This document shows positions 29,480 to 40,558 of a DNA stretch of 64,000 bases, in pieces. Made by a program: the position numbers and the translations under genes. Under the pieces are notes generated by a model. It was not told the origin of the DNA, did no database searches, and saw nothing but the letters and a program-made list of their open reading frames with translations. Source of the stretch: Myxococcota bacterium (lineage in GTDB: Bacteria > Myxococcota_A > Polyangia > Nannocystales > Nannocystaceae); contig JBCCHT010000038.1 in the NCBI GenBank assembly GCA_039028615.1, positions 1 through 64,000 of the forward strand. Direction: 5' to 3'. Position 1 is the first letter of the stretch. Every line of letters starts with the position of its first letter.

Positions 29480-29518
29480 CATTGCCGGCCGACTCGCGCC
29501 GTGTCACCGTGCGCAGGT

Positions 29519-32500
29519 ATGGCTCGACGTGCGCAGCAGTTGATTCTCGGTCTGGGGCTGTCTTTCGCGTGGGCCGGGCTTTCCTGCAAAGGTGATCCTG
29601 GCGCGAGCGAAGCCAAGCCGGAGACACCCGCCGATGAATCCACGCCCGCGGCAGAGTCCAAGGGCGGGGGCGACGAGACGAAGCCGGCCGCGGCCCTTCC
29701 CGACGAAGGCCCACTGCCCACGCTGCGTACGGGCGCGGTCGAGCCGGAGGTCTTGCCCGCCGTCGAGGCCGAGATCCTCACCCAAGCCCTCGAAAAAGGC
29801 GTCGAGTTCTACGAACTCCGCCTGCCGCGATCGTGGCAAGACGCCGACGCGGTCGCGCGGATCCACATCGAGCGCCCCAAAGGCGCAGTGGCGGTCCTCG
29901 AGGAGGTCGGCGGCGACACCAACCTGTTGCTGCGGGTCCCGGCCAGCGCCGGACCGGTACTCGACTTCGTGGGCACCGCCTTCATTACCGCCGATCGGGA
30001 GGACGGTCGCCGTTGGCTGAGCCTGCCCTTTTCCGCCAAGGGCTCGGCCAAAGATCGCGGCACGACCGGCCTGGCCCCGCGCTGGGCCTCGGCCCTGGCG
30101 GCGAGCCTCCGAGGGGAGGGGGGACCGTGGTGGGTCCGCACGCCCAGCCACCCCTGGCGGGAGTTCGCGGCGGGTCGGGTCGCGGCGATGGCCGGGGGCG
30201 CGACCGCGGCGGGGTCCTTCGATCTCGGTGGTCGTCGACCGCGTCGCACCGAGCTGTCCGAGCTGATGCACACGACCACCGCGGCGACCTCCATGCAGGA
30301 GGCGCTGCAGCACGATCGCGGTCTGAGGCTGCGCGGCAAGCCAGGCCCGGCCACGGTGCCCTTGGCCGAGCTGTCCGGCCCCGGATTGGTCGAGCACCCC
30401 TGGCCGGAGATGATCGCCGCGCTGCCCGATCACAAAGCGGGGACGCCCGAGCCATTGGCCGCCTCGACCCCGGCCGACTTCTGGTACGTGCGCTTCGACG
30501 ACATCCGCGTGCTGCTGAAGGTGCTCGACGAAGCGGACACCTGGATTACCCCCGTGGCCCACGCCATGGAAGAGCGGGCCGAGGTGCGCGACCTGAGCGG
30601 GCGCTACCAAAAACAGCTGGGCCTGCGGCGCACGGGGCTGGCGAAGGCGCTGGGGCACACGGTGGTCAAACGCCTCGCCATCGTGGGCAGTGATCCGTAT
30701 CTGCGCGAGGGCAGCGACGTTACCTTCATCTTCGAGCTGCACAACGCCGCCATCTTCGAGTCCGAGCTGAAGCGTCATCTCGATGGCTACCGAGGCGAAA
30801 TCCCGGGCATCGTCGACTCGACCCTCGAGCACGGCGCCCACGAGATCGCCGTCCATCGCGACCCGGCGGGCATCGTGCGGCAGCACCGAGCGACCGTCGG
30901 CGACCTGGCCATCGTGTCCAACAGCCCCGGGGCGATCCGAGCCGTCCTCGATGCCATCGACGGCACGGCGCCGCGCCTGTCCGAGGACCAGGACCTGGCG
31001 TACATGCTCGCCCGCGATCCCGGGGCCCACGAAGGCTTCGTGTTCCTCGGCGATCGCTTCATCGCGCAGGTCGTGGGCCCCCGGCAGAAGGTGCTGGCCG
31101 CCCGTCGTCAGCAGGCCCTCGCGGCGTTGCTCACCCCCGGCTACGCGGCGCTGCTCTACGGCTGGCTCGAGGGCAAGGCGCCCGCCGACGCCGAGGCGCT
31201 CATCGCCTCCGGCCTGCTCGATCGCGACGAGCTGCGCCACGACGACGGCGAGGCTATCGCGTTCGAGCCGGGCGGTACGGCGCGTTCGTCGTGGGGCAGC
31301 CCGGCCGCCCTCACTCCGCTCATCGATCTTCCGGCTCCGACCACGGTCACCGAGGCCGAGCGAGACGCCTACGCCACCTTTGCCCGCGGCTACCAGAACT
31401 ACTGGCGTCAGTTCATCGATCCGGTCGCGATTCGCCTCGACCTGAACGAAGACGGCGACGAAGCGGAGGCCGTGGTCGACGTTCGGGTGCTGCCGCTCAT
31501 TACCGGGACCGACTACGGCGACCTCGAGGAGATCGTGGGCACCCAACGCATCGAGGCCCCCGCCATCGACGACGGCCTGCAGATGGTCTGGGCGGTGGGG
31601 GCCGACTCCAAGCTCCGACGCGAGCTCGACCAGGCCGCGAGCGTCTTCGGTGGTAACCGCGACATCGGCCTCGGCTGGCTGGGCGAGTGGGTGATGCTCG
31701 GCACGCTCGATCGACTCCCGGTCATCGAGGTCATGGCGATGCTCGACGAGGACATCCAACGCCCGGCCCCGGACCAGGATCGCAAGCAGCGAGACCTCGC
31801 CCTGGCCAAGCCGCTCGGGCGGCTGCCGGTTTACGCCGCGGCGAACGTCTGCAACCCCACCGCGCTCATCGCCACCTTGGCGGCGGTACGAAAGTCTCTC
31901 AACGAGATTGCCCCGGGCATGATCCAGTGGGGAGAGCACACCAAGCACGGCGACTACTCCATCGTGCGGGTGGGGGTCGATCCGGCGTTCGCGGGCGAGT
32001 TCCGGGAGTTCGCGGAGTCGATTGCGCTGCACTACGTGGTGGCGGGAGACGTCGTCGTCCTGGGTCTCGATCCGACGGTGCTCGAGGTGATGATCGACCG
32101 TACCTCCGCCGGCCAGCGTCCAAAGCCCGGGGCCGCCGATGGTCCGCAGTTCGTCATGGAGGCGCGGCTGGCTCGCGAGCGGGCTAGCTACACCGCGCTG
32201 TCCTGGGCCATGCAGGGGCAGGCCAACCGCAGCCAGGCGGCGGCGCGCTCGGTCGCCGAGATCCTGCTGCGCGGGGAGCCGGGCATCACCACCGAAGCCG
32301 AGCTGAAGGCCCGCGGCCTCGCTCTGTTCGGGGCCTATCCGGTCAGCGCCTCGGGCCGGGCCGACTTCAGCCTCGGCCCGCAAGGCGCGGGCGATGGCGT
32401 GCACGGCACCTCGATCGCGCCCGTGTTCCCCGAGCTCCCCGTCGAGGGCAGCCCCATCGCCGCGCTCATGTCTCGCTTGGTCGGCGTGAACGCGTCCGTC

Positions 32501-32584
32501 GCCTTCGATCGCGAGCCCGCGCCGATGGAGCCCCCCGCCCGGAGCCTGCACACCCGCCTGCGCGTGCGGCTCGGAAGCGAATAG
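29519..32584 (+). CDS. Large hypothetical lipoprotein (~1020 aa)
   Basis: ATG 29519; lipobox GLSC; long ORF with typical codon bias; no recognisable catalytic motif. Confidence 0.8.
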   Translation: MARRAQQLILGLGLSFAWAGLSCKGDPGASEAKPETPADESTPAAESKGGGDETKPAAALPDEGPLPTLRTGAVEPEVLPAVEAEILTQALEKGVEFYELRLPRSWQDADAVARIHIERPKGAVAVLEEVGGDTNLLLRVPASAGPVLDFVGTAFITADREDGRRWLSLPFSAKGSAKDRGTTGLAPRWASALAASLRGEGGPWWVRTPSHPWREFAAGRVAAMAGGATAAGSFDLGGRRPRRTELSELMHTTTAATSMQEALQHDRGLRLRGKPGPATVPLAELSGPGLVEHPWPEMIAALPDHKAGTPEPLAASTPADFWYVRFDDIRVLLKVLDEADTWITPVAHAMEERAEVRDLSGRYQKQLGLRRTGLAKALGHTVVKRLAIVGSDPYLREGSDVTFIFELHNAAIFESELKRHLDGYRGEIPGIVDSTLEHGAHEIAVHRDPAGIVRQHRATVGDLAIVSNSPGAIRAVLDAIDGTAPRLSEDQDLAYMLARDPGAHEGFVFLGDRFIAQVVGPRQKVLAARRQQALAALLTPGYAALLYGWLEGKAPADAEALIASGLLDRDELRHDDGEAIAFEPGGTARSSWGSPAALTPLIDLPAPTTVTEAERDAYATFARGYQNYWRQFIDPVAIRLDLNEDGDEAEAVVDVRVLPLITGTDYGDLEEIVGTQRIEAPAIDDGLQMVWAVGADSKLRRELDQAASVFGGNRDIGLGWLGEWVMLGTLDRLPVIEVMAMLDEDIQRPAPDQDRKQRDLALAKPLGRLPVYAAANVCNPTALIATLAAVRKSLNEIAPGMIQWGEHTKHGDYSIVRVGVDPAFAGEFREFAESIALHYVVAGDVVVLGLDPTVLEVMIDRTSAGQRPKPGAADGPQFVMEARLARERASYTALSWAMQGQANRSQAAARSVAEILLRGEPGITTEAELKARGLALFGAYPVSASGRADFSLGPQGAGDGVHGTSIAPVFPELPVEGSPIAALMSRLVGVNASVAFDREPAPMEPPARSLHTRLRVRLGSE

Positions 32585-33292: not shown

Positions 33293-33874
33293 TTGGGCAA
33301 CATCGTACGAGATGAAAACGGTGGCACCTTCACCCTCGAAGCGAGGGGCGGAGGGTCGTGGCACGCCCCCTTCGGTGGGCAGTCGCTGCGCTCGGCCTTG
33401 GGCCGCGCCGCGAGTGTGCGCAGTGTCTTCGACTATCCCGAAAATCGCCACGCGATGGCCGAGGCGCTGGTCGAAGCCAGCGTGCTGACCCGCACCGAGG
33501 GTCAGTCCATGAGCTTCGAAGAGATTCGCCAGCACGCGCACGGAGCCTTCGGCGCGGGGCGGCTGAGCTTGGTGCCCTACCGCCCGAGCCTGCGGCCGAT
33601 CTGCATCATCGAAGACGTCGAGCCGCCCGAGTCGCTCACCGAAGGCCTCGTCGAAGAAGAGGTCAAGCCCACGCATACCCTCGAGATCGAGCTGGTCGAC
33701 GAGGACGAGGAGCCCGTGCCCGGCGAGCCCTACCGCGTCGAGCTGCCCAGCGGCGACATCATGGAGGGCCGTCTCAACAACCTCGGTCGCGCGATGCTCA
33801 CGGGCATCGTCGACTCGGGCAACTGCAAGGTCACCTTTCCGCGGCTCGACGAGGCCGTGTGGGGTCCGGGGTAG
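33293..33874 (+). CDS. Hypothetical protein with C-terminal transthyretin-like domain of the type seen on VgrG/PAAR-associated proteins
   Basis: LEIELVDEDEEPVPGEPYRVELPSGDIMEGRLNNLGRA...CKVTFPRLD; TTG start with upstream GGAAGG. Confidence 0.65.
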   Translation: MGNIVRDENGGTFTLEARGGGSWHAPFGGQSLRSALGRAASVRSVFDYPENRHAMAEALVEASVLTRTEGQSMSFEEIRQHAHGAFGAGRLSLVPYRPSLRPICIIEDVEPPESLTEGLVEEEVKPTHTLEIELVDEDEEPVPGEPYRVELPSGDIMEGRLNNLGRAMLTGIVDSGNCKVTFPRLDEAVWGPG

Positions 33875-33880
33875 GTCGCG

Positions 33881-34522
33881 ATGCCGGTCAACCACAAGGT
33901 CGTTCAGGGCGATTGCATCTCGAGCATCGCGGCCAAGCACCGCATGCTCCCCGAGACCATCTGGGATGCCCCGGAAAACGAGGCGCTCCGCAACGAGCGT
34001 CCGCACTGGAACGCGCTCGCGCCCGGGGATGTCGTGGTCGTGCCCGACGTCACCGAGCGAGTCGAGGACGCCGCCGTCGACAAGGCGCATCGCTTCGTCC
34101 GCAAGGCGGTGTTCGAGAAGGTCAAGCTCGTGCTGCACGACGAGGACGGCGAGCCCCGGGCCCAGCTGGCCTACCAGATCGAGTTCTCGGATGGCTCCGA
34201 CATGATCGAAGGCGAGACCGGTGACGACGGCGTCATCGAGTTCAAGCACCCGCCCAAGATCGACAAGGCCACGCTGCGCGTCGAAGCGCCGGACTTCAAA
34301 GAGGTCCACGAGCTCGAGTTCGGCGGCGTCGACCCGATCACCACCGTCAAGGGCATGCAGGATCGTCTTCGCAACCTCGGCTATGCGGTCGAGGCCAACG
34401 GCGAGCTCGACGGCGCCACCAAGATCGCGATTCAGTCGTTCCAGAGCGACGCCGAGATCGACGTGACCGGCGAGTTCTGCGACGCGACCCAGGCCAAGCT
34501 CGAAGAGCGCTACGGCAGCTGA
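33881..34522 (+). CDS. LysM + transthyretin-like + peptidoglycan-binding domain protein
   Basis: HKVVQGDCISSIA...LAPGDVVVVP (LysM); LHDEDGEPRAQLAYQIE...EGETGDDG; MQDRLRNLGY...ATKIAIQSFQ...TGE (PG_binding_1). Confidence 0.8.
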   Translation: MPVNHKVVQGDCISSIAAKHRMLPETIWDAPENEALRNERPHWNALAPGDVVVVPDVTERVEDAAVDKAHRFVRKAVFEKVKLVLHDEDGEPRAQLAYQIEFSDGSDMIEGETGDDGVIEFKHPPKIDKATLRVEAPDFKEVHELEFGGVDPITTVKGMQDRLRNLGYAVEANGELDGATKIAIQSFQSDAEIDVTGEFCDATQAKLEERYGS

Positions 34523-34646
34523 GCGCCGGTTCGCAGCCGGGAGCTCATTTCGGGTCGGGTCCTTCGGGCCGGCCGGCACGGTCTGATTCGCCGACAAACG
34601 TCGGCGTCGAGTACCGGTTCACGACACGCGAGCTATCATCGCGCCC

Positions 34647-34997
34647 GTGGCCGAGGTCGATCCTCCACGGGATGGCGATCCTGCATCGCTGTCCCACATC
34701 GCACGGTGGTTCGCGTTTGCGGTCGCCCTGCTGACGGCGGGGAGCTGGATGTCCTGCGGGCTGATCCCGCGCAGCGAGAACGGGCCGAGCGTCTTTACCG
34801 GCATCACCGTGTTCGCCGTGGTGGCCTGGTTGACCACCTCGGTCTTGATCATCGTCGCGTCCCGGCGGCTCGACGGAGGGCCCGAGTCGTCGGGTGTCCA
34901 CCGACTCTCGGACGCGTCGCGAATGCTCCGCGTCAGCGGCGTGACCCTCCTGATTCTCGTCGTGCCCTGGCTCGCATGCCTGGCGTCGACCCGGTAG
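34647..34997 (+). CDS. Small 3-TM membrane protein
   Basis: Three hydrophobic segments; stop lies 3 nt before the radical SAM ATG. Confidence 0.55.
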   Translation: MAEVDPPRDGDPASLSHIARWFAFAVALLTAGSWMSCGLIPRSENGPSVFTGITVFAVVAWLTTSVLIIVASRRLDGGPESSGVHRLSDASRMLRVSGVTLLILVVPWLACLASTR

Positions 34998-35000
34998 CCC

Positions 35001-36455
35001 ATGGAACGACGACAACGGCCCTATCTGTTCTACGGCGCCACGCGAGCGCTGTGCTCCAAGTGCCTGATGGTCTGCGACGCCAAGGAGCTGATCGAAGGCA
35101 ACCGGGTGTACCTGTGGAAGCGGTGCATGGAGCACGGGGTCGAGCGCGTGCTCATCTCCGACGACGCCGACTACTTCCGGCTGTGCCGAGAGACCTTCCT
35201 CAAGGAGCCCGAGCAGGTCGAGAAACACAACACGGGCGTGCTCTACGGCTGCCCCTACGACTGTGGCATCTGCCCCGATCACGAGCAGCACGGGTGCGTC
35301 TGCGTCCTCGAGGTCACCGACCACTGCAACCTGTCGTGCCCGACCTGCTTCGCCGACAGCGGGCCTCATCGACAGACCCACCGCTCGATGGAGCAGATCC
35401 GGCGCATGCTCGATCTGATCGTGGCCAACGAGCGCGAGCCGGACGTCGTGCAGGTCTCGGGCGGCGAGCCCACCGTGCACCCGCAGTTCTTCGAGATCCT
35501 CGACGAGTGTCGCCGACGTCCGATCCGGCACCTCATGGTCAACACCAACGGCCTCCGCATCGCCAACGAGGACGGCTTCGCCGAGCGCCTGGCCGAGTAT
35601 GCGCCGTCCTTCGAGCTGTACCTGCAGTTCGATGGCCTCAACGACTCCGCCACCCGCACGCTCCGCGGTGCCGACCTGTCGCGGATCAAGAAGCGGGCCT
35701 TGGCGCGGCTCAACGAGCTCAACCTGGCGACGACGCTGGTGGTCACCGTGCGCCGTGGCGTCAACGAAAACGACCTGGGGGAGATCCTTCGCTTCGCGGC
35801 GGAGCAGCGCTGCGTTCGCGGGGTCACCCTGCAGCCGGTCCACGATACCGGCCGCAACGAGGGCTTCGACGTCGACGACAACCGCATGACGCTGTCCGAG
35901 GTGCGGCGACGGGTGATCGAGGACTTCGACACCTTCACCGCCGAAGACGTCATCCCCGTGCCCTGCCATCCCGATTGCGTCGCCATGGCCTACGCGGTGC
36001 GAGGCAAGGGCGACGACTACCGTCAACTCTCGCCGCTCACGCGTTATGTGCCGCCCGACGTGCTCATCGACGCGGGGCGCAACACCATCATCTACGAGGG
36101 CGACGACGAGCTCATGACCGCGGTGGGCAAGCGGATCTTCTCCGCGTTCTCCACCGGCCACGGCCCCAAGGGGGCGAGCAAGGCGCTGGGCGAGCTGATG
36201 TGCTGCCTGCCCCAGGTCGACGCCCCCGATCTCGGCTACGATCGCGTCTTTCGCCTGATCATCATGCAGTTCCTCGATCGGCACACGATGGACCTGCGCT
36301 CGGTTCGAAAGAGCTGTGTCCACATCGCGGCGCCCGACGGCAAGCGGATGATCCCCTTCGATACCTACAACGTATTCTATCGCGATGCCCTCGAGCAGAC
36401 CGTGCTCGAGCCTTTGCGCGAGCGCGTGCGCCTCCCCGTGCAGGTCGGGTCTTGA
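35001..36455 (+). CDS. Radical SAM enzyme, tetraether lipid synthase (Tes/MJ0619)-like family
   Basis: N-terminal CSKC...KRCMEHG; GCPYDCGICPDHEQHGC; SAM cluster motif CNLSCPTC; SGGEPT; NTNG; YLQFDG; PCHPDC; C-terminal SCVH...IPFDTYN. Confidence 0.85.
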   Translation: MERRQRPYLFYGATRALCSKCLMVCDAKELIEGNRVYLWKRCMEHGVERVLISDDADYFRLCRETFLKEPEQVEKHNTGVLYGCPYDCGICPDHEQHGCVCVLEVTDHCNLSCPTCFADSGPHRQTHRSMEQIRRMLDLIVANEREPDVVQVSGGEPTVHPQFFEILDECRRRPIRHLMVNTNGLRIANEDGFAERLAEYAPSFELYLQFDGLNDSATRTLRGADLSRIKKRALARLNELNLATTLVVTVRRGVNENDLGEILRFAAEQRCVRGVTLQPVHDTGRNEGFDVDDNRMTLSEVRRRVIEDFDTFTAEDVIPVPCHPDCVAMAYAVRGKGDDYRQLSPLTRYVPPDVLIDAGRNTIIYEGDDELMTAVGKRIFSAFSTGHGPKGASKALGELMCCLPQVDAPDLGYDRVFRLIIMQFLDRHTMDLRSVRKSCVHIAAPDGKRMIPFDTYNVFYRDALEQTVLEPLRERVRLPVQVGS

Positions 36456-37261
36456 GCCCCGAGCTGGTCTACGGGGTGATGGTGGGGCTGGCGACCTGCG
36501 TCGCCTTTGCCATCCGTCGCTCCGAGGGCCGGCGCCTGGGCTACGAGAGCCAGCCTGGCTATCGCTGGGTGGGGCTTTGGTGTGTCGCGGGAGCCGTGCT
36601 CGGTGCCCGGCTCGGGATGTTCTTCTACACCGCGCCCCACGAAGGCGGAGAACTCCAGCGTGCCGTGTACACCCTGGGCTTCGACGGCAAGACGGTGCTC
36701 GGGGCTCTGACCGGCGGCTACGTCTTCGGCGAGATCGGCAAGAAGGTCGTGGGCGTGCGCTTTTCGACCGGCGACGCGCTCGCCTTGGCCTTACCCGTGG
36801 GGCAGGCCTTGGGGCGCCTTGGCTGTTTCTTCGCCGGGTGTTGCTACGGCGCCCCGACGGACGTGCCGTGGGCGATTGCTCAGCACGACGCCCTGCGTCA
36901 TCCCGTGCAGCTGTACGAAGCCGGGGCGTGCCTGCTGTTGGCGGGCCTGCTGTTCGTCATTCGCGATCGCCCTCGCCCGCCCGGCCACCTGTTTCGTTAC
37001 TACCTCATTGGCTACGCGACCATTCGCTTCTCGAGCGAGATGGTGCGCGGCGAGCCGCAGCTCATGCTCGGGCCTTTGACGTACGCGCAGCTGTACTGCC
37101 TGGTGATGGGGGTTGGTTTCGCCTGGACGCTCCGCGGATCAAGCTCCACAGCGGTCCGAACTGAATCGACAGCAGGTTCCCCAGGCGGCGATCCGGCAGG
37201 CCACACTCCACCTGCGCCCGACCCGGCAGATAAGTCCCGAACAGCTGATCCCACAGCATGA
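36452..37261 (+). CDS. lgt: Prolipoprotein diacylglyceryl transferase (Lgt) family protein
   Basis: C-terminal part of ORF 34706..37261, starting at a TTG that overlaps the radical SAM stop (TTGA); GARL, GQALGRLGCFFAGCCYG, HPVQLYE and RFSSEMVR; multiple TMs. Confidence 0.85.
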   Translation: MSPELVYGVMVGLATCVAFAIRRSEGRRLGYESQPGYRWVGLWCVAGAVLGARLGMFFYTAPHEGGELQRAVYTLGFDGKTVLGALTGGYVFGEIGKKVVGVRFSTGDALALALPVGQALGRLGCFFAGCCYGAPTDVPWAIAQHDALRHPVQLYEAGACLLLAGLLFVIRDRPRPPGHLFRYYLIGYATIRFSSEMVRGEPQLMLGPLTYAQLYCLVMGVGFAWTLRGSSSTAVRTESTAGSPGGDPAGHTPPAPDPADKSRTADPTA

Positions 37262-37901
37262 GCGTGGAGCCGTAGTTGCGGTCGTGGAGGGCAGTGTCGC
37301 GGGCGTGGTGGACTCGGTGGTTGTTCGGCGTGTTGAACCATCGATCGAGCCAGCGGCTGGGGCTCGGCAGCTCGGTGTGGCACACCATCTGCCAGCCGTC
37401 GTTGATCTCGATCAGCATCAGCAGCAGCCAGGGGTCGAAGCCCAATAGCGCCAGTGGAGCGAAGAACAGGTAGCTCAGGGCCGCCTCGATCCAGTTGAGG
37501 CGAAACGTGGCCAGGAAGTTGAGCGACTCGCTGCTGTGGTGGGTGGAGTGCAGCGCCCAGCCCAGCCGGGTCTGGTGGAAGAGTCGGTGCTTCCAGTAGT
37601 AGATGAAGTCGATCAGCACATAGGCCGCCGCCGCACTTCCGATGCCGACCTCCCATCGCACGGGCGCGAAGCGGGCGAGCCACGCGAACAGCCCGAAGCG
37701 CAGGGCCACCGTCGCTCCGCGCTCGGCGAGGTTGACGGCAAAGATGACGCTGTCGTTGGCCGTCTGCGCGATCGATGGCGATCGGCCTCTGGCCCACGCC
37801 ATATAGGCCATCTCGGCCATGATCAGCCCGCCGACGATCGCCGCCAGCAGCTCGCGGTGGACCCACAGCGGGTCCAGCTGCAGCGCCGCGCCTACGAGCA
37901 C
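37062..37901 (-). CDS. Sterol desaturase / fatty-acid hydroxylase family (alkylglycerol monooxygenase-like)
   Basis: His boxes YYWKHRLFH, HSTHHS and HRVHH; RNYGSTLMLWDQLFGT. Confidence 0.88.
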   Translation of the reverse strand: MLVGAALQLDPLWVHRELLAAIVGGLIMAEMAYMAWARGRSPSIAQTANDSVIFAVNLAERGATVALRFGLFAWLARFAPVRWEVGIGSAAAAYVLIDFIYYWKHRLFHQTRLGWALHSTHHSSESLNFLATFRLNWIEAALSYLFFAPLALLGFDPWLLLMLIEINDGWQMVCHTELPSPSRWLDRWFNTPNNHRVHHARDTALHDRNYGSTLMLWDQLFGTYLPGRAQVECGLPDRRLGNLLSIQFGPLWSLIRGASRRNQPPSPGSTAARTSKARA

Positions 37902-38074
37902 AGCCCCGTCACGAAGTACAGCATCCCCACCACGATGCCCACGTTGATGATCACCGCGGCCGTCGTCGGCAGGCTCGTCCCTTGCTTGGCGAGCATGCGA
38001 TCCCCGGGCATCGGCGCGGGCACATTGCTCCTCGCCTTCGGCCGCTCGCCGTCATCCTGGTCGGTGTCGCCCAC
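37892..38074 (-). CDS. Small protein with C-terminal TM helix
   Basis: 60 aa with GC3-biased codons and TM AAVIINVGIVVGMLYFV; overlaps the desaturase start. Confidence 0.45.
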   Translation of the reverse strand: MGDTDQDDGERPKARSNVPAPMPGDRMLAKQGTSLPTTAAVIINVGIVVGMLYFVTGLCS

Positions 38075-38164
38075 GCACCGACCACACTAACAGCTCCACC
38101 CCCGACCCCGCGACCGGGCCCCGGGCCGTACCAGGACCGGAGCTGCGGTGAGTGTGGCGGACGA

Positions 38165-40558
38165 TTACTTGCCCTTGCCCTTGCTCGTGCGCGGAGCGGG
38201 ACGGCGGGTCGACGTCGAGGTCTTCTTCTTGCCGGAGGGCTTGGCGGTGGGCTTCTTGCTAGAAGACGTCTTCTTCTTGGCCGAGGGCTTTTTGGCCGAA
38301 GGCCGGGCGGAGGACTTCTTCTTGCCACCGAGCTTCTTGCCGGCGCCGATCTTGCGACCCTTGCCTTTGCGGAAGCCGGGGCGACTGACTTTGGTCAGGG
38401 TGGTCCAGTCGCCGTTGTAGCGGCTGTGCTCGATGAACGAAGCGGGGCTGGGCGCGGGGCAGGTGCCGGGCTTGCACTGGGTGCGCAGGGGCGGCGGCTC
38501 GCAGCCGAGCTGATCGTCTTCGACGCGCTTGCGGCCGACGGCGGCGGACTTGCCCGCGCCCTGGTCGGCCTTGATGCGGTCCTCCATCTCGCGGGTCCGC
38601 TTGGCGCCGCGCACGGCCCAACGGGGCTTGGGCGGGACCTTGCACGCCTTGGTCTTCTTGCTCAGCACGCGGACGGTGTTGGCGATGGAGGCGACCTTGC
38701 CGGGCGCGACGTCGAGCTTGAACAAGGCGTGGCTCTTGGGGTCGACCTCTTGGACGCCGTGGATGAAGTGCTCCCAGCCGAGCGCGGGCATGCCCTCGTG
38801 CTCGACGTAGTAGCCGTAGGCGGAGAAGGGATCGAGGACGAGGGTCTGCGAGGCGCCGGGCAGGTTGACGCGGTGGCCGCTGTCGACCATGCCGTGCACT
38901 GCGTAAAAGGGCAGGTCCTCGGCCCTACGACCCTTGCGGCCCTTGCGGTTGACCATGGCGTCGAACTCGGCCTTGGTCATCTTGTAGTCGCCGCGGTTGA
39001 AGGCCTTGCGCATGGCCTTCTTCTGGCGCTTGTTGAACGACTTGCGGCCGGCGACCAGTGCTCCGCCCTTGGCACAGCCGTAGCGCTTGTTCTTGCTGCG
39101 GCGGCAGGCGGCCTTGCTGGGCATGTTCTCGGAGCGCACGAGCAGGTAGACCTCGTGCTTCTTCTTGCCCTTGGGGAGCTTGCGGCCCTGGAGGTTGATC
39201 TCGCTGGGACGCTGCACCACCGAGGCGCCCACCATGTCCATGTTGCGGTAGACGCTGTCGATGCCGAAGTCGATGGAGGAGTTGGAGCGCAGGCGAACGT
39301 GCAGGCACTGGTGCATGTTCTCGAGCGACAGCGACGAGTCGGCGGGGACCCACAGGTCGCTGACGAGGCTGCCCTGGCCGATCTGCCCCGCCCACTGCCC
39401 GGGCGCGACGGGGCCGCTGAGGGTGGCCGTCTCCACGAGGTTCCAGGTGGCGGTCTGCCAGGTGCTCCACTGCAGGCCCCAGTTGGCGACGCGGAACTCG
39501 GCCTGCACCTGACCGGCCTCGACGGTCTCGTCGGTGCGGTTGATGAACCCGGCCCGGAAGTGAGCGCCGTCCTCGTAGGGGATCTGGTTGGAGGGATACG
39601 AGTAGGGGATGTTGGTGTCCGGGATGGTCCCGTTGGTCATGTTGTAGTCGGTCCCGACGAGGGGCCGATACAAGTTCACGCCGCCGCAGCCGGCCGGGTC
39701 GGCGGTGTCGAGCAGGGGCCAAAGGTCGAGGTCGTTGCCGAGCGGCAGGTCCTCGGGCAGCGTGCTCGATGCGTTCGCGCTGGTGATGATGCAGTCGTCG
39801 GAGGTCTGCGAGCTGTTGTTGCACAGCAGCGGAAACTGCACCGCGGTGCCCGAGGTCGGGCCCTGCATGAACATCAGCGAGTTGCCGTAGATGTGGAGGT
39901 TGGGCCGGATGTCGCCGGAGCCCGACGTGACGGGGACCTCGAGCGCAAAGCGAAGGGTCCAGTCGTAGGTGGTGCTGGTCGCCGACTCGTTGACTCGCAC
40001 CTGCACCCACGGCTCGTGCACGGTGAACGTGGAGCTGGGGTTGGTGGTGGACAGAGGTGTCCAGTTGACCGAGGTGCCCCCACCGATCGCCGCCGCGTAG
40101 TTGATCGAGGAGGGGCCCAATGCGGAACCGTTGTCGTCGCAGTTGCTGACGGGGCTGCACCCGCGCAGGGGCTGGAACTGAATGAACAGCTCGGGGGCGT
40201 CGCCGGCGGTGTTCGACAGCGCGAAGACCACCACGTCCTGCGTGGAGTCGATGGAGGTATCGGCGTTCACCTCCATTTCAACGAAGACCCGCTGCGAGGC
40301 CTCGTCCCAGATCATGCGCGAGCGGGCGAGCTCGGGGACGGCGGAGTCTCCTTCCGTTCGAGAGGTGGCCTTGGTCCACCGCACCTCTCGCTGAGACTCG
40401 CTCAGCGAAGGGTTCCACCACTCGGGGTGGTGGGCGGTCGCTCCGGGCACCGCCTCGGCCTGCCGGAGGCAGAGATCCCCGGGATCGGAGGCTTGGGCGG
40501 TTTGGGAGAGGAGGGCGACGACGGCGGAGGCGAGCAGGGGTGACAGCAGACGCGACAT
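38165..40558 (-). CDS. Secreted hypothetical protein with highly basic Lys/Arg-rich C-terminal part
   Basis: Signal peptide MSRLLSPLLASAVVALLSQTAQA; tail KKPSAKKKTSSSKKPTAKPSGKKKTS... Confidence 0.8.
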   Translation of the reverse strand: MSRLLSPLLASAVVALLSQTAQASDPGDLCLRQAEAVPGATAHHPEWWNPSLSESQREVRWTKATSRTEGDSAVPELARSRMIWDEASQRVFVEMEVNADTSIDSTQDVVVFALSNTAGDAPELFIQFQPLRGCSPVSNCDDNGSALGPSSINYAAAIGGGTSVNWTPLSTTNPSSTFTVHEPWVQVRVNESATSTTYDWTLRFALEVPVTSGSGDIRPNLHIYGNSLMFMQGPTSGTAVQFPLLCNNSSQTSDDCIITSANASSTLPEDLPLGNDLDLWPLLDTADPAGCGGVNLYRPLVGTDYNMTNGTIPDTNIPYSYPSNQIPYEDGAHFRAGFINRTDETVEAGQVQAEFRVANWGLQWSTWQTATWNLVETATLSGPVAPGQWAGQIGQGSLVSDLWVPADSSLSLENMHQCLHVRLRSNSSIDFGIDSVYRNMDMVGASVVQRPSEINLQGRKLPKGKKKHEVYLLVRSENMPSKAACRRSKNKRYGCAKGGALVAGRKSFNKRQKKAMRKAFNRGDYKMTKAEFDAMVNRKGRKGRRAEDLPFYAVHGMVDSGHRVNLPGASQTLVLDPFSAYGYYVEHEGMPALGWEHFIHGVQEVDPKSHALFKLDVAPGKVASIANTVRVLSKKTKACKVPPKPRWAVRGAKRTREMEDRIKADQGAGKSAAVGRKRVEDDQLGCEPPPLRTQCKPGTCPAPSPASFIEHSRYNGDWTTLTKVSRPGFRKGKGRKIGAGKKLGGKKKSSARPSAKKPSAKKKTSSSKKPTAKPSGKKKTSTSTRRPAPRTSKGKGK

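Follow-up and report, generated by a model that had tools for sequence, protein, structure and literature searches.

We analysed a 64,000-nucleotide stretch of a Myxococcota genome (contig JBCCHT010000038.1 of assembly GCA_039028615.1; hereafter the window) that carries, side by side, the genes of an enzyme of the radical S-adenosylmethionine (SAM) class with the fold of Tes and of a paralog of the diacylglyceryl transferase Lgt. The two genes belong to a conserved and widespread system, accompanied by small membrane proteins with a cysteine behind a helix; the window locus is its five-gene myxobacterial form, and the system appears not to have been described previously. We propose, with a probability of roughly 45%, that it lipidates proteins by a second pathway: the radical enzyme would modify an acyl chain in a phospholipid, after which the dedicated Lgt copy would move the diacylglyceryl to the cysteine of a mini-protein. 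The observations behind this proposal are the linkage of the genes, the one-to-one co-occurrence of enzyme and paralog, the helix-G-x-C motif of the mini-proteins, the retention of the head-group residues of Lgt and of the SAM-binding residues of Tes, and the loss of the C-terminal Tes cysteines. The features of the unit are the following.

34647-34997, plus strand: 116-aa membrane protein with a GTG start, an open reading frame (ORF) of no Pfam or NCBIfam family.
35001-36455, plus strand: Tes-fold radical SAM enzyme of 484 aa with an ATG start (PF23545 and PF04055).
36201-36206, plus strand: Cys401-Cys402 pair marking the Lgt-linked type, found in 103/103 Lgt-adjacent enzymes.
36360-36362, plus strand: Asp454, at the position of the PFC cysteine of Tes; acidic throughout the family.
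36452-37261, plus strand: dedicated Lgt paralog of 269 aa with a TTG start, of the G-K-T-V-L-G type (PF01790, 128.6 bits).
37062-37901, minus strand: gene of the fatty-acid hydroxylase/desaturase family with three His boxes (PF04116, 105.6 bits).
37892-38074, minus strand: 60-aa single-helix protein ending in G-L-C-S, with Cys59 at 37898-37900; top match to the helix-G-x-C profile.

Linkage was counted in stretches around relatives of the window's radical SAM enzyme (labelled L016 and so on), namely the best 80 of 256 loci found in GTDB genomes and the best 80 of at least 589 metagenome loci. The Lgt-paralog profile was built from the GTDB loci, so the GTDB linkage count is not independent of it; metagenome loci unused in building it are called held-out. 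An Lgt-like neighbour was found in 51/80 GTDB loci by tblastn and in 52/80 by profile, and in 63/80 held-out metagenome loci by profile. Loci with at least 1.5 kb on either side of the enzyme were scored as full-flank, neighbours were counted within 3.5 kb, and enzymes with and without the Cys401-Cys402 pair were called CC-type and noCC, respectively. The paralog lay within this distance in 47/52 full-flank CC-type GTDB loci and in 34/37 such held-out metagenome loci, and in the five GTDB exceptions it was present elsewhere in the genome (5/5, 213-242 bits). In contrast, noCC enzymes had an Lgt neighbour in 0/21 cases and a methyltransferase in 19/21; one of these 21 loci ends at a contig end, and L149, counted as noCC, has the CC in a variant spelling.

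The same association was seen in whole genomes. In 67 genomes of the window's own order (the kin sample), nine paralog copies were detected in seven genomes (216-301 bits; next match, 100), and 9/9 adjoin an enzyme of the close type, the tenth close-type enzyme being methyltransferase-linked. Kin genomes are not independent of one another, and hence linkage counts are given without a P value. No paralog was found in the five genomes of the same genus (0/5; 72-95% complete). In a sample of 101 acidobacterial genomes (the phylum of L075, labelled Blastocatellia), the paralog occurs in 9/101, seven times beside the enzyme, once next to a divergent enzyme and two Cys mini-proteins, and once at a contig end. 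Within the 121 genomes sampled from the window's own phylum, the enzyme is present in 7/121, with the paralog within 1.5 kb in 5 of the 6 others; the window's own genome (12.27 Mb, 96.7% complete) has a single gene of this enzyme type. Named records cover Myxococcota, Bacillus/Gottfriedia, Bacteroidota, Betaproteobacteria, Acidobacteriota and two DPANN-labelled genomes. These last, L055 (labelled Woesearchaeota) and L068 (Pacearchaeota), hold enzyme, Lgt paralog and Cys mini-proteins, possibly through a binning error; an archaeal Lgt homolog is said never to have been identified in the excerpt of PMC12462473 consulted here (all sources are cited from excerpts).

These data show that the pairing is far above chance, and that the unit is accessory and patchy in distribution. 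The pairing with Lgt noted in the original prediction is thus a conserved one, being one-to-one in the kin genomes and present at 34 of the 37 held-out loci. The idea of chance neighbours, or of a housekeeping lgt lying beside an unrelated enzyme, was rejected on the linkage in GTDB and metagenome loci and in the 67 kin genomes; the genome does contain five Lgt-family genes, any of which could land anywhere, but the one-to-one co-occurrence, the clade of its own that the paralog forms and the presence of a housekeeping candidate between two lspA genes on another contig make this idea almost certainly wrong.

On its sequence and predicted structure, the window enzyme is built like Tes and yet is not Tes. 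A model folded with a 92-row alignment (predicted local distance difference test, pLDDT, 88.8; a single-sequence fold with pLDDT 39 was not used) superimposed on GDGT-MAS (7TOM) with a Z of 44.9 and a root mean square deviation of 2.9 over 413 residues at 32% identity, and the next family reached Z 18.9. The best NCBIfam matches were TrsS (NF045646, 304.7 bits; cut-off 490) and Tes (NF045702, 253.8 bits; cut-off 450), whereas MoaA/SPASM models gave at most 61 bits. By both measures (Z 44.9 versus 18.9; 254-305 versus at most 61 bits) the enzyme is Tes-like and not MoaA/PqqE-like. The motifs read in the original prediction are in place: an N-terminal site, C18xxC21-x20-C42xxH45, with the same spacing as Tes C9/C12/C33/H36; the cluster motif C84PYDCGIC91PDH94 (C84/C88/C91/H94); and SCVH and IPFDTYN at the C-terminus. 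The SAM cluster motif C109/C113/C116 is intact. F/Y117, R222, Q278 and R285 correspond to the SAM-binding F106, R210, Q268 and R275 of Tes, and R222, Q278 and R285 are invariant in 103/103 (conservation counts refer to the 103 Lgt-adjacent enzymes or paralogs). Besides these SAM-binding residues, the excerpted Tes paper names the rubredoxin and N-terminal ligands, Met439 and Tyr459 (PMC9433317).

The C-terminal site is rebuilt. The ligand cysteines of Tes were deduced from 21 bacterial Tes loci, drawn from the 101-genome acidobacterial sample and lying above the Tes NCBIfam cut-off, because the excerpts cited give no Cys numbers; those of PMC11186832 give none either. Three C-terminal columns are Cys in 21/21 of these sequences. 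They correspond to query positions 326, 438 and 454 and, by the 7TOL alignment, to C338, C455 and C470 of M. jannaschii (own numbering), and they would be the cysteine ligands of the Tes C-terminal cluster, which is described as three Cys and one Met (PMC13459092, in excerpt). The window enzyme has C326, S438 and D454 at these columns. Among its Lgt-adjacent relatives, position 326 is Cys in 22/103 and mostly S/A otherwise, position 438 is S/T/A in 103/103, mostly S/T, and position 454 is D in 65 and E in 38 of 103. The absence of Cys from IPFDTYN, already remarked upon from the sequence, is therefore real, since D454 occupies the alignment column of the Cys in Tes IPFC, and the loss exceeds that one cysteine. 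C99, C322, C401, C402 and C439 are invariant (103/103). Met422 of the window enzyme matches Tes Met439, although only 61/103 relatives have Met there, and the position of Tes Tyr459 is occupied by Ile. A tree was built from 117 sequences with no archaeal sequence among them (the window enzyme, 60 of 135 CC-type enzymes taken at random, 22 called noCC, 5 outgroup, 21 Tes and 8 from a further group), and supports were taken from splits. In this tree the family is one clade (support 0.998), and a branch of 1.38 (support 1.0) lies between the 21 bacterial Tes and the family together with a methyltransferase-linked outgroup. Among named records, the enzyme's closest relatives come from myxobacteria. 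Membership of the Tes/MJ0619 family, as first assigned, thus holds for the fold and the N-terminal metal sites but not for the rest: the enzyme scores below the Tes cut-off, lies in a separate clade and has its C-terminal cysteines replaced.

These differences bear on the possibility that the enzyme works as Tes does, coupling lipid tails through C-C bonds into macrocyclic or membrane-spanning bacterial lipids, with glycerol dialkyl glycerol tetraethers of the branched type (brGDGTs) as candidate products. Fold and N-terminal metal sites are the same, Met422 and Cys326 of the window copy match Tes, Tes itself tolerated M439A and Y459F/L (excerpt of PMC9433317), and C322, C439 and the CC pair could rebuild an equivalent cluster. 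Nevertheless, S438 and D454 replace two of the three invariant Tes Cys and the third is kept in only 22/103 relatives; the long branch of 1.38 (support 1.0) parts the family from Tes; and in the acidobacterial sample true Tes orthologs occur in 21/101 genomes, 0 of them with an Lgt match within 1.5 kb, while the family occurs in 7/101. We consider a Tes-like function very improbable. The tail-crosslinked lipids suggested in the original prediction are weakened by the lost cysteines and the separate clade, and tail welding of the Tes type is unlikely. A third Tes-like group, common in the acidobacterial sample (L232-L239 and about 40 matches, 290-346 bits), retains the Met and the three C-terminal Cys of Tes but lacks the N-terminal Cys columns. 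At L247 (G169:C274), two divergent Tes-like enzymes stand in tandem with no Lgt or methyltransferase match nearby.

The noCC relatives form a methyltransferase-linked clade of 21 sequences, without CC pair or Lgt neighbour, which nests inside the family as sister to the myxobacterial branch with the window gene (0.999, 0.962). The partner methyltransferases of noCC enzymes begin with CC in 18/18 cases, and those of the outgroup in 5/5; the pair thus seems to follow a cis/trans pattern between enzyme and partner methyltransferase. The next-best models of these methyltransferases are ArsM, all ArsM scores being below cut-off. By record title the sister clade (L024, L070-L072, L074, L077, L078, L080, L081, L086-L094 and L129; outgroup, L205-L209) is mostly from marine Gammaproteobacteria, and a DUF547 gene often lies between enzyme and methyltransferase. 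One might speculate that a Tes-fold enzyme with a methyl-arsenic donor is a candidate for arsenolipid synthesis at chain ends; a literature search for an arsenolipid role of this clade returned no paper.

The same pair could serve heteroatom capture in the Lgt-linked loci: CC would hold arsenic (or Se or S), the enzyme would join the heteroatom to a lipid chain, and Lgt would move that lipid to the mini-protein. The vicinal cysteines are found in the enzyme (103/103 Lgt-linked) or, failing that, at the N-terminal end of its partner methyltransferase (18/18 and 5/5), the ArsM resemblance of the latter points the same way, and there is a precedent in ArsL, whose C-terminal RCCLKC holds As(III) (bioRxiv 10.1101/2024.02.01.577332, in excerpt). 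Against this, the recurring neighbours of Lgt-linked loci, whose clusters were read by eye, included no recognisable gene for arsenic resistance or for a methyltransferase, the methyltransferases score below every ArsM cut-off, and the explanation fits the sister clade better than the window locus, where it is improbable.

The second enzyme of the pair retains the head-group residues of Lgt. The excerpt of PMC8689077 lists R143, Y235, R239, G154 and E202 of E. coli Lgt as binding the phosphatidylglycerol head group; the equivalents of the first three (R122, Y188, R192) are present in 103/103 paralogs, and those of G154 and E202 (G133, E156) in 96/103 each. The paralog consists of about 230 aa of fold and a low-complexity tail, and scores above the PF01790 gathering threshold of 24.9 but under the cut-off of TIGR00544 (71 against 118.9). 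Its clade has a split support of 0.971 and is marked by K/R/Q80, E94 (102/103) and K97 (103/103). A separate housekeeping lgt, which the original prediction advised looking for, has a candidate on contig C59, between two lspA genes. This copy is also under the TIGR00544 cut-off (71.7 bits), and by its neighbours it is likely the housekeeping Lgt; in M. xanthus, lspA1, lspA2 and lgt share one operon (PMC8689077, in excerpt). Of the three further divergent Lgt-family genes in this genome (C3:476477-477232, C37:77675-78427 and C2:504914-505663), the His of the HGG motif is present in the C3 copy alone, and one of the three could be the enzyme that lipidates MYXO-CTERM proteins. No enzyme-Lgt fusion was found in 20 longer Lgt-like matches, a weak test, and none was flagged in the 160 loci. 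A complex prediction of enzyme and paralog with the three clusters included scored 0.09, a value for which controls were not folded.

Small hydrophobic ORFs with a helix followed by G-x-C recur beside enzyme and paralog. A score matrix was derived from 36 such ORFs of the GTDB loci (in 1/36 the wrong Cys had been chosen, and 2/36 are the L030 homologs of the window genes) and used at a threshold of 8. With 23.5, the 60-aa ORF is the top match of the whole genome, the next being 15.2 for a C-terminal Cys and 18.9 for any Cys. Matches were found at 23/36 full-flank and 15/35 short CC-type metagenome loci and at 9/30 GTDB loci outside the training, a set biased to negatives, compared with a background of 29/3022 four-kb tiles of the own genome, 7/81 distal flanks and 0/19 GTDB noCC loci. 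Two to four copies were present at 26/77 positive loci. Among the 112 profile matches, the Cys lies near the C-terminus (tail of at most 20 residues) in 73, 19 of which have His in the last two positions, and after the first helix of a hairpin in 39. For composition counts three of the 112 were dropped (two judged spurious, one an ordinary lipoprotein) and the training ORFs kept. Lys plus Arg per residue fell from 0.153 before the helix to 0.051 after the Cys (n=106), which is the lipoprotein-signal orientation and is expected to point the Cys outward. The lipobox [LVI][ASTVI][GAS]C, a consensus taken from the excerpt of PMC12462473, fits only 9/109 mini-proteins; the 60-aa protein, where a single residue follows T-G-L-C, has no canonical lipobox. 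Searches with Pfam on 10 mini-proteins and NCBIfam on four gave none above cut-off.

The original prediction had named the small membrane protein upstream of the enzyme as a possible acceptor. A small membrane protein in that role fits the family-wide pattern, but the 60-aa gene is the better candidate (23.5, as against -8, a poor fit, for the 116-aa protein). The latter probably has three helices, with Cys37 and Cys111 each behind a hydrophobic stretch; a homolog occupies the same position in L030 (33% identity over 75 aa, both Cys aligned), and a word search found no relative besides that copy. In an atlas look-up the 60-aa protein stayed below 0.9 and the 116-aa protein reached 0.91, with unnamed clusters only. 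We consequently regard the 60-aa protein, through Cys59, as the prime acceptor candidate and the 116-aa protein as a secondary one.

The mini-proteins also invite a reading in which they are substrates of a pathway for peptides that are synthesised ribosomally and modified post-translationally (RiPPs): the radical enzyme would modify the mini-protein at or near G-x-C before insertion, the Lgt copy would add an ordinary diacylglyceryl, and the lipopeptide might be freed. Multi-copy precursors of no known domain do adjoin the enzymes (at L051:4738-5989, five tandem paralogous mini-proteins ending in G-x-G-A-C lie directly upstream of the enzyme), the tail is at most 20 residues in 73/112, with His in the last two positions in 19 of these, and an invariant acidic residue stands where Tes has cysteine. 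However, beyond the hydrophobic helix and G-x-C there is no conserved leader or core, no protease or exporter recurs among the neighbours, the enzyme shares its fold with one that binds lipids, and the 39/112 matches with Cys after the first hairpin helix have no free tail. Taken together, a RiPP-like route seems unlikely, if worth keeping in mind.

The fourth gene belongs to a lipid theme that, with the Tes fold, speaks for lipidation by a modified lipid. The hydroxylase has its His boxes intact at 105, 118 and 195 and scores 72.8 with the OlsE model, below 475; at 15 other loci its gene adjoins the paralog. In L019, L030, L031, L032, L039 and L041 a one-helix Cys peptide is encoded at the head of the hydroxylase gene. 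All five genes of the layout recur in L030, and all but the 116-aa gene in L019, L031 and L032. The hydroxylase is an accessory part of a myxobacterial subtype. In L036, L037, L039-L042, L142 and L180, the paralog and one or two hydroxylase genes are accompanied by two more proteins: a membrane protein of some 285 aa (no Pfam or NCBIfam match), which we take to be HTTM-like, and its partner of 129 aa.

A second lipid-tailoring enzyme at 15 loci would also suit an arrangement in which the mini-protein serves as a reusable carrier, or as an adaptor in the membrane, and the pathway ends in a free membrane lipid (with a ring, a double bond or a thioether, or spanning the membrane), as would the lack of a soluble domain for a lipid anchor to serve. 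This we find distinctly unlikely, as no release enzyme recurs in the neighbourhood, the Cys of the mini-protein points away from the radical enzyme, and the thioether formed by Lgt is not readily reversed.

The unit is accordingly larger than first described. The three plus-strand ORFs lie where the original prediction had placed them, and the coupling it reported is in the sequence, with a 3-nt gap (TAG CCC ATG) between the first two genes and a TTGA overlap at 36452-36455; as an operon of three genes the description stands for their presence and coupling, but it overlooked two minus-strand genes. The 116-aa, radical SAM and Lgt genes face those of the hydroxylase and the 60-aa protein. Third-position GC (GC3) of all five ORFs is 0.85-0.93, as expected of coding DNA in this genome, and 0.93 for the 60-aa gene, which overlaps the hydroxylase start by 10 nt. 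The low-complexity tail of the paralog overlaps the convergent 3′ end of the hydroxylase gene by 200 nt (37062-37261), and paralog/hydroxylase overlaps of 60-230 nt are also seen in L016, L018, L019 and L030-L032. An 851-aa ORF in the Lgt frame (34706-37261) and antisense ORFs were discarded as shadows of high GC. A promoter scan of the locus gave no sigma-70 site, and two terminator-like matches at chance level; a look-up of RNA runs over 34500-38200 listed none. Outside the unit, positions 33293-34522 encode a LysM/peptidoglycan-binding protein (33881-34522) and a 193-aa partner of no family, and positions 29501-32584 a 1027-aa lipoprotein-like ORF without a Pfam match; neither the LysM gene nor the other flanking genes were found among the recurring neighbours.

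In the lipidation pathway that we propose, SAM would yield a 5′-deoxyadenosyl radical that takes a hydrogen from the lipid chain. The C-terminal cluster of Tes captures the first lipid radical (PMC9433317, in excerpt); since the Tes cysteines are gone, the radical would here be quenched otherwise, not parked on an open cluster of the Tes type but resolved at C99, C322, C439, the C401-C402 pair and the acidic residue 454. The product would be oxidised, carrying a double bond, ring or C-S bond, in place of two welded tails. The radical enzyme would act first, in the cytoplasm, and Lgt transfer would follow outside, because the enzyme lacks an export signal, whereas both the cysteine of the acceptor and the active site of Lgt face the outside; the Lgt cavity opens to that side (excerpt of PMC8048626). 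The G-x-C box, with a mostly bulky residue before the Cys, would route mini-proteins to the paralog and away from the housekeeping Lgt and LspA, and the chain would be modified once more by the hydroxylase in the myxobacterial subtype.

Several findings weigh against this pathway. No mini-protein was found at 13/36 held-out full-flank loci and 21/30 GTDB loci outside the training, and the 36 training ORFs were picked by eye. Residues 384-407 of the enzyme model, which hold the CC pair, are of low confidence. The closest sister clade has a methyltransferase and no Lgt, so that the fold alone does not imply a lipoprotein product. Finally, the position of the catalytic His103 of Lgt is V/L/I in 98/103 paralogs, Leu83 in the window copy, where the Asn146 equivalent is Cys125. 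In a set of 17 further Lgt copies, taken from this genome and five more, however, 16/17 lack His103, the lspA-flanked copy included, and 16/17 have Cys for Asn146. The two changes were therefore dismissed as marks of changed Lgt chemistry, and the loss of His103 cannot separate the paralog from working enzymes. Substitution for His103 by a C-terminal His of the acceptor was also dismissed, as only 19/73 have one.

The broader claim, a new class of protein lipidation in which a non-standard lipid made by a radical SAM enzyme is hung by a dedicated Lgt on domainless membrane peptides, is more tentative still. If it is true, the lipid may be cyclised, sulfur- or arsenic-bearing, or cross-linked, a lipopeptide family has spread by gene transfer across many phyla and the two DPANN-labelled genomes, and the cis/trans switch of the CC pair flags the methyltransferase-linked clade as a candidate for an enzyme placing methylated arsenic on lipid chain ends. 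Were the proposed mechanism correct, it would be the first coupling found of radical lipid chemistry to lipidation of the Lgt type. With the enzyme pair and the acceptor residue (Cys59 of the 60-aa protein) both named, and with carriers in culture (among them the Gottfriedia/Bacillus records L025-L029 and Leeia oryzae, L061), the system is testable.

A full-text literature search, covering mostly sources other than subscription journals, found no description of the set of enzyme, Lgt and mini-protein genes. Zeng et al. list 456 bacterial Tes homologs with a proposed role in brGDGT synthesis, and the excerpt of their paper contains no neighbourhood analysis of them (PMC8941075); Sahonero-Canavesi et al. 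report Tes homologs in only 3/14 acidobacteria that make iso-diabolic acid (PMC13159169, in excerpt). A large group of bacterial Tes homologs is shown here to lack the Tes cysteines and to be tied to a protein-lipidation module, and proxy studies would be misled if Lgt-linked enzymes in genomes or metagenomes were counted as Tes.

Compared with Tes/GDGT-MAS (MJ0619; 7TOL/7TOM, NF045702), the window enzyme shares the fold, the rubredoxin-like site, the N-terminal cluster motif, the SAM cluster and the SAM-binding residues. It differs in its score (253.8 against 450 bits), in having C/S/D for the three Tes cysteines and in the Ile at Tyr459, and its family differs in the five invariant cysteines, the separate clade and the tie to an Lgt paralog and mini-proteins. 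TrsS (NF045646) is its best NCBIfam model, though at 304.7 bits it falls short of 490. In contrast to the methyltransferase-linked relatives (DVU_1556-like NF045667, DUF547), no methyltransferase or DUF547 gene lies at the window locus, and no DVU_1556-like methyltransferase was found there or at any CC-type locus among L016-L175. The C-terminal vicinal Cys pair of ArsL, which holds a heteroatom substrate (bioRxiv 10.1101/2024.02.01.577332, in excerpt), offers an analogy for C401-C402; motif, place and gene context differ, and ArsL is not among the 25 best NCBIfam models listed for the enzyme. With Lgt of E. coli (5AZB), the paralog shares the Pfam family, the head-group residues and candidate acceptors whose Cys closes an in-to-out helix on the outer side; it differs in lying under the TIGR00544 cut-off, in forming its own clade (K/R/Q80, E94, K97) and in being accessory and patchy. 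Unlike canonical lipoproteins, the candidate acceptors fit the lipobox in only 9/109 cases and have no soluble domain. In MYXO-CTERM/myxosortase and JDVT-CTERM/MrtJ there are likewise an invariant Cys by a membrane helix, a proposed Lgt-like lipidation and dedicated enzyme-target pairs (PMC11980579, in excerpt). In those systems, however, the Cys precedes a C-terminal helix with an Arg tail in large surface proteins, and the enzyme is a CPBP protease (same excerpt), whereas in the window system very small proteins have the Cys behind the helix, there is no recurring protease, and the constant partner is a radical enzyme.

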